Below, piece after piece: positions 2,733 to 2,982 of a stretch of 7,465 nt of DNA (position 1 is the stretch's first letter; each line of letters begins with the position of its first letter). This DNA comes from a virus. Its lineage: Duplodnaviria; Heunggongvirae; Uroviricota; Caudoviricetes. The notes under the pieces are model-generated. The model saw nothing but the letters and a program-made list of their open reading frames with translations. It was not told the origin of the DNA and did no database searches. The stretch is taken from the IMG/VR virus record IMGVR_UViG_3300028976_000016, positions 1-7,465 of that record; one strand, 5' to 3'. The position numbers and the translations under genes were made by a program.

Positions 2733-2808
2733 GGCCCTTTAGCTCAGTGGTGAGAGCGAGCGATTCATAATCGCCAGGTCGCTGGTTCAAATCCAGCAAG
2801 GGCCACCA
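2733..2808 (+). tRNA. ileZ: tRNA with anticodon CAT, tRNA-Ile2 (lysidine) type, CCA encoded
   Basis: Manual cloverleaf: acceptor GGCCCTT/AAGGGCC, D-stem GCTC/GAGC, anticodon loop TTCATAA (CAT at 2766-2768), T-arm GCTGG-TTCAAAT-CCAGC, discriminator A, CCA at 2806-2808. Closely resembles E. coli tRNA-Ile2 as I recall it. The symbol follows the ileZ-argN-argO cluster order known from Stx-type phages. Confidence 0.8.
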
Positions 2809-2815
2809 TCACATA

Positions 2816-2892
2816 CCGCCATTAGCTCATCAGGATAGAGCGCCAGCCTTCGAAGCTGGTTGCGCGGGGTTCGAGTCCTCGATGGCGGTCCA
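2816..2892 (+). tRNA. argN: tRNA-Arg, anticodon TCG (by manual fold), CCA encoded
   Basis: Acceptor CCGCCAT/ATGGCGG, D-stem GCTC/GAGC, anticodon stem CCAGC/GCTGG with loop CTTCGAA (TCG at 2850-2852), T-arm CGGGG-TTCGAGT-CCTCG, CCA at 2890-2892. Symbol assigned by cluster order only; the anticodon should be confirmed. Confidence 0.7.
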
Positions 2893-2905
2893 TTATCTGT
2901 ACCCT

Positions 2906-2982
2906 GCGTTATTAGCTCAGCCGGACAGAGCAATTGCCTTCTAAGCAATCGGTCACTGGTTCGAATCCAGTACAACGCGCCA
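2906..2982 (+). tRNA. argO: tRNA-Arg, anticodon TCT (reads AGA/AGG), CCA encoded
   Basis: Acceptor GCGTTAT/ACAACGC (one A-C mismatch), D-stem GCTC/GAGC, anticodon stem ATTGC/GCAAT with loop CTTCTAA (TCT at 2940-2942), T-arm ACTGG-TTCGAAT-CCAGT, discriminator G, CCA at 2980-2982. Symbol by cluster order. Confidence 0.75.

Follow-up and report, generated by a model that had tools for sequence, protein, structure and literature searches.

Positions 2733 to 2982 of a 7465-base stretch of tailed-phage DNA (IMG/VR record IMGVR_UViG_3300028976_000016; the whole stretch is referred to here as the window) hold three closely spaced transfer RNA (tRNA) genes, which very probably constitute the ileZ-argN-argO tRNA operon of Escherichia coli lambdoid prophages, a set of rare-codon decoders. 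They are the only tRNA genes found in the window by ARAGORN, and all lie on the plus strand. Identical intervals were obtained for each gene with ARAGORN and with the Rfam tRNA covariance model, which has a gathering score of 29 bits (Table 1). An earlier note on this DNA had proposed three tRNA genes at these positions with anticodons CAT, TCG and TCT, and had marked the middle anticodon, read from a manual fold, as doubtful; ARAGORN and Rfam confirm the three genes, and ARAGORN returns TCG for the middle one. In all three, these programs recover a full cloverleaf and an intact anticodon. The encoded CCA that the note had described can be read directly in the sequence after each discriminator base (A-CCA in ileZ, T-CCA in argN and G-CCA in argO). 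The genes are separated by spacers of 7 nucleotides (nt; 2809–2815) and 13 nt (2893–2905). Single-sequence minimum free energy folding, which gave no cloverleaf for ileZ and weak z-scores for argN and argO, as is expected for tRNAs, was not used as evidence.

The cluster is already known, since it is annotated in Shiga toxin 2 (Stx2) phages and in prophage Sp5 of E. coli O157:H7 Sakai, and a Met(CAT)-Arg-Arg trio has been reported between q and stx in Stx2a, Stx2c and Stx2d phages alike (PMC7366253). A 361-base region around the cluster matches 289 phage records, most of them Stx2-converting, at 90–98.5% identity, and the matching records annotate ileZ (tRNA-Ile), argN and argO; the cluster itself is 94–98.5% identical to these annotated genes of Stx2 phages and to those of Sakai Sp5. 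Based on a blastn comparison with Stx2a_WGPS8 (locus L002), window positions 2729–3020 correspond to 4001–4291 of that locus with 95.5% identity, and the individual genes are 98.7% (ileZ), 97.4% (argN) and 98.7% (argO) identical. The layout is that of Sakai Sp5 (NC_002695.2), in which ileZ2, argN2 and argO2 lie 90 bases upstream of stx2A, so the equation with ileZ-argN-argO made in the earlier note stands. More generally, Stx2 phages of the 933W/Sakai Sp5 type (AP012540, NC_002695.2) share with the window the gene order, anticodons, encoded CCA and spacer lengths, as well as the −10 element TATTAT and the terminator described below. A literature search for the names ileZ, argN and argO gave no match, and these names rest on the database annotations together with the trio reported in PMC7366253.

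Identity of the three tRNAs

The available evidence supports the assignment of the CAT gene as an ileX-type tRNA-Ile2, which, once lysidinylated, would be expected to read AUA. The gene is 88.2% identical to K-12 ileX, which with ileY encodes the host tRNA-Ile2, compared with 67.9% for the elongator genes metT/metU and 61.5% for the initiator gene metZ. Its acceptor stem (GGCCCTT...AAGGGCC) has the pairs C4-G69 and C5-G68, which act as positive determinants for E. coli TilS, whereas the U4-A69 and A5-U68 pairs of tRNA-Met are negative determinants (PMC2500205; PMC11947777). In addition, the determinants by which TmcA recognises tRNA-Met (C27-G43, C30-G40 and G44; PMC2500205) are missing from the window gene, which has A27/C43, G30-C40 and A44 instead. 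Relative to ileX, the 6-67 pair has undergone a compensatory change from C-G to U-A, and A27-C43 takes the place of G27-U43. The identification as tRNA-Ile2 put forward in the earlier note therefore holds on the strength of the ileX identity and the TilS determinants.

Related loci (more than 119) were collected from IMG/VR with a pattern across the ileZ-argN junction; in every copy this pattern fixes 25 bases at the end of ileZ and 14 at the start of argN, and so affects every allele count given here. The window ileZ has T at position 32 (C32U), where the anticodon loop begins, and its loop is UUCAUAA in place of the canonical CUCAUAA. C32 is found in ileX, in four aligned homologs and in 114 of 116 IMG/VR copies, and T32 in the remaining two. 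The loop CUCAUAA is common to the tRNA-Ile2 and tRNA-Met of E. coli, and both wobble-modifying enzymes recognise the anticodon loop as part of their target (PMC2500205). Because a copy in MS7163 that is identical to the window gene is annotated as tRNA-Met, we only infer lysidine modification, and likewise charging, of the C32U allele.

The identity set of E. coli tRNA-Arg reportedly comprises A20, C35, G36 or U36, and A73 or G73, as is said to have been established by Tamura et al. in 1992 and by McClain and Foss in 1988. The first three of these elements are present in both argN and argO. The argN gene has A20, C35 and G36, with the D loop AUCAGGAUA, the anticodon UCG and a C1-G72 first pair, and argO has A20, C35 and U36, with the D loop AGCCGGACA and the anticodon UCU. 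At the discriminator position, a minor element of tRNA-Arg identity, argO carries G73 and argN carries U73, as do 103 of the 107 argN copies. The closest K-12 tRNA is at most 71% identical to argN; to our knowledge, K-12 is without a UCG isoacceptor, and it reads CGA via inosine with tRNA-Arg(ICG). The counterpart of argO in K-12 is argU, which is 72.7% identical and has in common with it the anticodon loop CUUCUAA, A20 and G73. All stem pairs are standard in the argN allele of the window. In argO, position 6 is A (G6A), which results in an A6-C67 mismatch in the acceptor stem that is flagged by Rfam; G occupies this position in 97 of 110 related copies and the A6-C67 allele occurs in 3. The Rfam score of argO is 64.4 bits in the window and 70.1 bits in Stx2a_WGPS8.

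The three genes are unevenly conserved. The CAT-TCG-TCT order is kept in 100 of 117 complete clusters, and over 110–116 related copies ileZ is nearly invariant and argO strongly conserved, with some compensatory changes such as C-G to G-C at pair 51-65. The most polymorphic gene by far is argN, whose 108 copies (loci L014–L132) comprise 40 different sequences. Two broken pairs, A6-A67 and A52-C62, are seen in 26 of 107 argN copies (neither is present in the window), a callable TCG tRNA is lost from 7 of 117 clusters, and position 32 is divided between C and T (88 and 19 copies).

Transcription unit and codon demand

A sigma-70-type promoter (9 of 12 consensus positions) precedes the trio, with its −35 element TTGATT at 2694–2699 and its −10 element TATTAT at 2717–2722, 10 nt before G1 of ileZ. 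In 119 of 120 related loci the −10 element precedes ileZ by 9–10 nt, irrespective of which gene lies before the cluster, and the primary transcription start site of the tRNAs mapped in Sakai matches this promoter (PMC7547250). Downstream of argO, a GC-rich hairpin of 7–8 base pairs (bp; 2997–3014) is followed by a T run; its fold energy is −11.5 kcal/mol (z = −2.95), and it was also found by the terminator scan. The alignment shows that this terminator is kept in Stx2 phages, and 83 of 116 loci fit a strict pattern of hairpin plus T run. Promoter, tRNA genes and terminator would together make up a compact, self-contained unit. The dedicated promoter would allow tRNA expression in the lysogen, and upon induction transcription from the late promoter PR', antiterminated by Q, should read through the intervening terminators and increase the tRNA supply along with late-gene expression.

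The codons that these tRNAs would read are heavily used in the window. In a comparison of 12 window open reading frames (ORFs; 1520 codons) with 42 annotated K-12 genes (14,790 codons), the frequency per 1000 codons was 17.8 against 2.4 for AUA (odds ratio 7.4, p = 2e-12), 16.4 against 1.2 for AGA (13.7, p = 2e-15), 10.5 against 0.7 for AGG (15.7, p = 7e-11), 7.2 against 2.6 for CGA (2.8, p = 0.006) and 6.6 against 3.5 for CGG (1.9, p = 0.06), fold values that are upper estimates given a K-12 baseline drawn from one 50-kb housekeeping-rich region. The expectation of the earlier note is thereby upheld, strongly for AUA, AGA and AGG and modestly for CGA, and the enrichment extends to AT-rich cargo ORFs and backbone ORFs alike. 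The ileX-like tRNA-Ile2 would read AUA once TilS converts C34 to lysidine, tRNA-Arg(UCG) would read CGA and CGG, the latter assignments being made on the basis of Watson-Crick pairing, and tRNA-Arg(UCU) would read AGA and AGG. In this way the trio would serve codons for which host tRNAs are scarce and which prophage genes use heavily, and a benefit for translation is presumed from this correspondence.

Alternative interpretations

Several observations weigh against a functional set of rare-codon decoders. Besides the housekeeping-rich codon baseline, the C32U change lies within the anticodon loop recognised by the wobble-modifying enzymes, and the MS7163 copy bears a tRNA-Met label; the minority G6A allele of argO breaks the 6-67 pair; and argN has the unusual U73 and is visibly decaying in about one quarter of related loci. 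In addition, the lysozyme gene downstream (Table 1) is frameshifted by one extra G in a G run at ~5040. The frameshift may mark a pseudogene of a defective prophage or may be a homopolymer sequencing error, the latter because the G run lies in draft-quality sequence that also contains a run of N. If the prophage is defective, as it may be, the tRNAs may be under weaker selection.

These same features form the case for a decaying relic, in which the genes are true homologs, one or more of them is non-functional here and the cluster persists only as a passenger of a defective prophage. Two minority substitutions fall at sensitive places (ileZ C32U in 2 of 116 copies and the argO A-C mismatch in 3 of 110), the argO score has dropped relative to the Stx2a_WGPS8 copy, the lysozyme frame is disrupted, and argN decays in many other loci. 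We consider this explanation unlikely. All three genes retain full cloverleaves, anticodons and CCA, the two tRNA-Arg genes keep A20 and C35, argN of the window is free of broken pairs, promoter and terminator are intact, and several complete genomes, among them MS7163 and S88, have kept these very alleles. U32 is a normal pyrimidine for its position, single A-C mismatches in the acceptor stem are often tolerated, and the frameshift may be no property of the prophage at all if it is a sequencing error.

A second alternative, which we regard as quite unlikely, is that the cluster is an autonomous, constitutively expressed moron acting mainly on the lysogen and not on the phage, with argN under weaker selection than ileZ and argO.

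It is improbable to a greater degree that the CAT gene is an extra elongator tRNA-Met reading AUG, in which case the cluster would supply rare-codon decoders for Arg only. ARAGORN labels the gene tRNA-Met by its anticodon, as do several phage records and the NCBI Prokaryotic Genome Annotation Pipeline (PGAP) for the 100% identical copy in MS7163 (locus L134, 3201–3276), and C32U departs from the CUCAUAA loop of both E. coli tRNAs (PMC2500205). In contrast, the copy of strain 19AR1724 (locus L001, 4239–4314), which differs from the window gene by the single base C32, is called tRNA-Ile by PGAP, and the C32 gene is named ileZ in curated records (AP012540, NC_002695.2). The T or C at position 32 alone is thus seen to flip the isotype call of the NCBI pipeline between MS7163 and 19AR1724. 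Misclassification between Met and Ile2 by tRNAscan-SE is put at ~1% (PMC8450103). What speaks against tRNA-Met is the body of the molecule, which is 88% identical to ileX and 68% to metT/metU, holds the positive TilS determinants and lacks all three determinants of TmcA.

Finally, phage tRNAs play an anti-nuclease role in other systems, and two of the three genes being tRNA-Arg, together with variation among copies at loop positions 32 and 38 (argN position 32, and T32 in the window ileZ), would fit resistant replacements that mainly counter anticodon nucleases or colicin D-type tRNA-Arg cleavage; this is barely credible, as codon demand closely matches supply and is covered by the simpler model, the anticodon loops are otherwise conserved, and a Pfam scan found no nuclease or defence gene in the window.

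Setting in the late region

The window is a lambdoid prophage late region of the S88/MS7163 type, stx-negative and possibly defective (Table 1). The Q-WYL-TrmB-AraC-tRNA block is the same in the stx-negative S88/MS7163 prophage. As in Stx2 phages, Q and a PR'-like promoter precede the tRNA genes, and STnc100, AsxR and the lysis genes follow them. Based on these positions and on homology of the promoter, the tRNA genes are predicted to belong to a Q-controlled late unit in addition to having a promoter of their own.

The promoter was placed by reference to Sakai Sp5. There, the aligned promoter TTTACG-16-TATCAT overlaps the end of Q, and a hairpin with a T run follows ~258 nt downstream; this distance matches StxS-L, a 258-nt transcript mapped from PR' to tR' (PMC7547250). 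The PR'-like promoter of the window was assigned because positions 1485–1545 are homologous to the initial transcribed region of Sp5 PR'. This segment is 80.6% identical to 3578–3638 of Stx2a_WGPS8, which lies directly 3' of Q in that locus. Two leader hairpins with T runs, obtained by folding 1490–1605, are candidate tR'-type terminators through which Q-modified polymerase would read, and the terminator scan lists 1574–1595. As another candidate for PR', the perfect TTGACA at 3044–3049 was considered, with STnc100 as the terminated transcript, an arrangement in which the late operon would begin only after the tRNAs, in contrast to Stx phages. It was rejected, as no acceptable −10 element is found at 16–18 nt, STnc100 sits downstream of stx2B in Stx2 phages, and 1457–1545 already contains a homolog of the Sp5 PR' leader, which is anchored by experiment.

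Several features distinguish the window from Stx2 phages. The Q protein is 56–58% identical to Q of Stx2a and Stx1a phages, and ileZ C32U and argO G6A are rare alleles. A WYL-like gene intervenes between Q and the PR'-like promoter, and TrmB-like and AraC-like genes lie between that promoter and the tRNAs, where Stx2 phages have a short PR'-tR' leader. The WYL-like ORF is in an odd spot for a moron, and no other ORF of the window is as rich in rare codons (79 per 1000 codons). Alignments of the AraC-family ORF to YdeO (E = 2e-30) and GadX span its whole length but stay below the NCBIfam cut-offs, and we take this ORF to resemble the prophage-borne regulators of the acid-resistance (GAD) island. 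Upstream of the trio, a methylase fragment is found in 71 of 110 related loci, an AraC-like gene in 12 and a Q933W-PR' leader in 7; linkage of an AraC-like gene to the trio is also seen in the Stx2k phage. Further downstream, the holin reading frames do not match across the N run, which indicates an assembly gap.

Table 1 Features of the 7465-base window in map order.
Feature	Position	Strand	Basis and remarks
DUF968 gene, end	14–304		ORF listing, Pfam
Antiterminator Q	307–693	+	Pfam PF06530, E = 1.5e-47
WYL-like ORF, AT-rich, 214 amino acids	742–1386	+	Weak WYL-domain match, E = 0.0096
PR'-like late promoter, TTGTGT-17-TAGTGT	1457–1485	+	Homology with Sp5/933W-type PR'
Leader hairpins with T runs, candidate tR'-type terminators	1517–1541, 1574–1600	+	Fold of 1490–1605
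TrmB-like small ORF	1665–1862		ORF listing, Pfam
AraC-family, YdeO/GadX-like ORF	1997–2704	+	Directly upstream of the tRNAs
Sigma-70-type tRNA-operon promoter, TTGATT-17-TATTAT	2694–2722	+	Consensus scan, 9/12
ileZ-type tRNA, anticodon CAT	2733–2808	+	ARAGORN; Rfam tRNA 72.0 bits, E = 1e-14
argN-type tRNA-Arg, anticodon TCG	2816–2892	+	ARAGORN; Rfam tRNA 56.0 bits, E = 2.6e-10
argO-type tRNA-Arg, anticodon TCT	2906–2982	+	ARAGORN; Rfam tRNA 64.4 bits, E = 1.2e-12
Intrinsic terminator of the tRNA operon	2997–3021	+	Hairpin followed by T run
Empty stx site	3021–3024		Between tRNA terminator and STnc100; 4 bases against a 1336-bp stx2AB cassette
STnc100-family small RNA (sRNA)	3058–3266	+	Rfam RF02076, 131.7 bits, E = 1.2e-29; own terminator 3236–3255
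AsxR-family anti-sRNA	3269–3321	−	Rfam RF02703, 63.0 bits, exactly the gathering score; convergent with STnc100
DUF1737 gene	3474–3701		ORF listing, Pfam
Class II holin ORF			Interrupted by 10 N (4063–4072)
DUF1327/YdfR gene	4195–4539		ORF listing, Pfam
Lysozyme gene	4883–5417		535 nt (closest genome: 534 nt)
Rz	5716–6180		Rz1 likewise present
DUF1398 and YlcI genes		−	End of the window gene order

An empty stx site and the distribution of the cluster

Comparison with Stx2a_WGPS8 defines the point at which stx is absent. After the match through the tRNAs, alignment resumes at window 3025–3257, which corresponds to 5628–5865 of that locus (75% identity), and the 1336 bases between the two flanking matches (4292–5627) contain stx2A and stx2B. 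No part of the window aligns to 4292–5627 by blastn, and no such ORF appears in the window ORF listing. The order tRNAs-stx2AB-STnc100 of Stx2a_WGPS8 and Sakai Sp5 is therefore represented here by tRNAs-STnc100-AsxR. In Sp5, AsxR occupies the same position after stx2B-STnc100 and scores 88.1 bits, compared with 63.0 bits in the window. Other stx-negative relatives differ in their flanks: in MS7163 and the 19AR1724 locus, STnc100 is followed by a nanS-type SASA esterase, which is absent from the window, and phage PhiR49_2, which is 98.5% identical through the tRNAs into the STnc100 region and has no stx, carries a methylase fragment where the window has the AraC-like gene.

The 250-base cluster is present at a coverage of at least 80% in 2578 of 5426 complete E. 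coli genomes (~48%), in up to 13 places per genome, and is 100% identical in MS7163. Among related IMG/VR loci, stx2A lies within 4 kb downstream in ~12 of 103; most loci go straight into STnc100, sometimes nanS, and then DUF1737 and the holin. Given its presence in ~48% of complete genomes, and of stx2A at only about 12% of related loci, the trio is widespread among lambdoid prophages of Escherichia and is no marker of the Stx lineage. The proposal of the earlier note that this phage shares the late-region backbone of Stx phages is accordingly retained as to arrangement and position, and is given up insofar as it took the trio as a marker of that lineage, the stx site being empty here. A scan of one genome per species with an exact 39-base pattern, which would miss diverged relatives, returned three matches, to Escherichia sp. 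and two contigs of metagenome-assembled genomes, and does no more than suggest that the cluster is restricted to Escherichia.

The possibility that the tRNAs are remnants of a prophage integration site was ruled out, as they are internal to the prophage, are present in induced phage genomes and occur in up to 13 copies per genome. A recent preprint reads tRNA matches near Pas/STnc100 sRNAs as prophage insertion-site remnants (bioRxiv 10.64898/2026.05.13.724894); contrary to that view, the tRNAs at this type of locus are phage-internal genes with their own promoter.

Implications

For annotation, the CAT gene is best read as tRNA-Ile2 and not tRNA-Met, with C32U as the base that makes pipelines flip. 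Beyond correct annotation the cluster matters little; what the window adds to the textbook picture is two minority alleles, uneven conservation of the three genes and a precisely defined empty stx site, an unoccupied insertion point displayed between the tRNA terminator and the STnc100/AsxR pair. Should the trio instead be a moron acting on the lysogen, the C32U ileZ could differ in function from other copies, perhaps by evading lysidine modification, and the cluster would raise translation of acquired genes rich in AUA, AGA and AGG, such as virulence genes.

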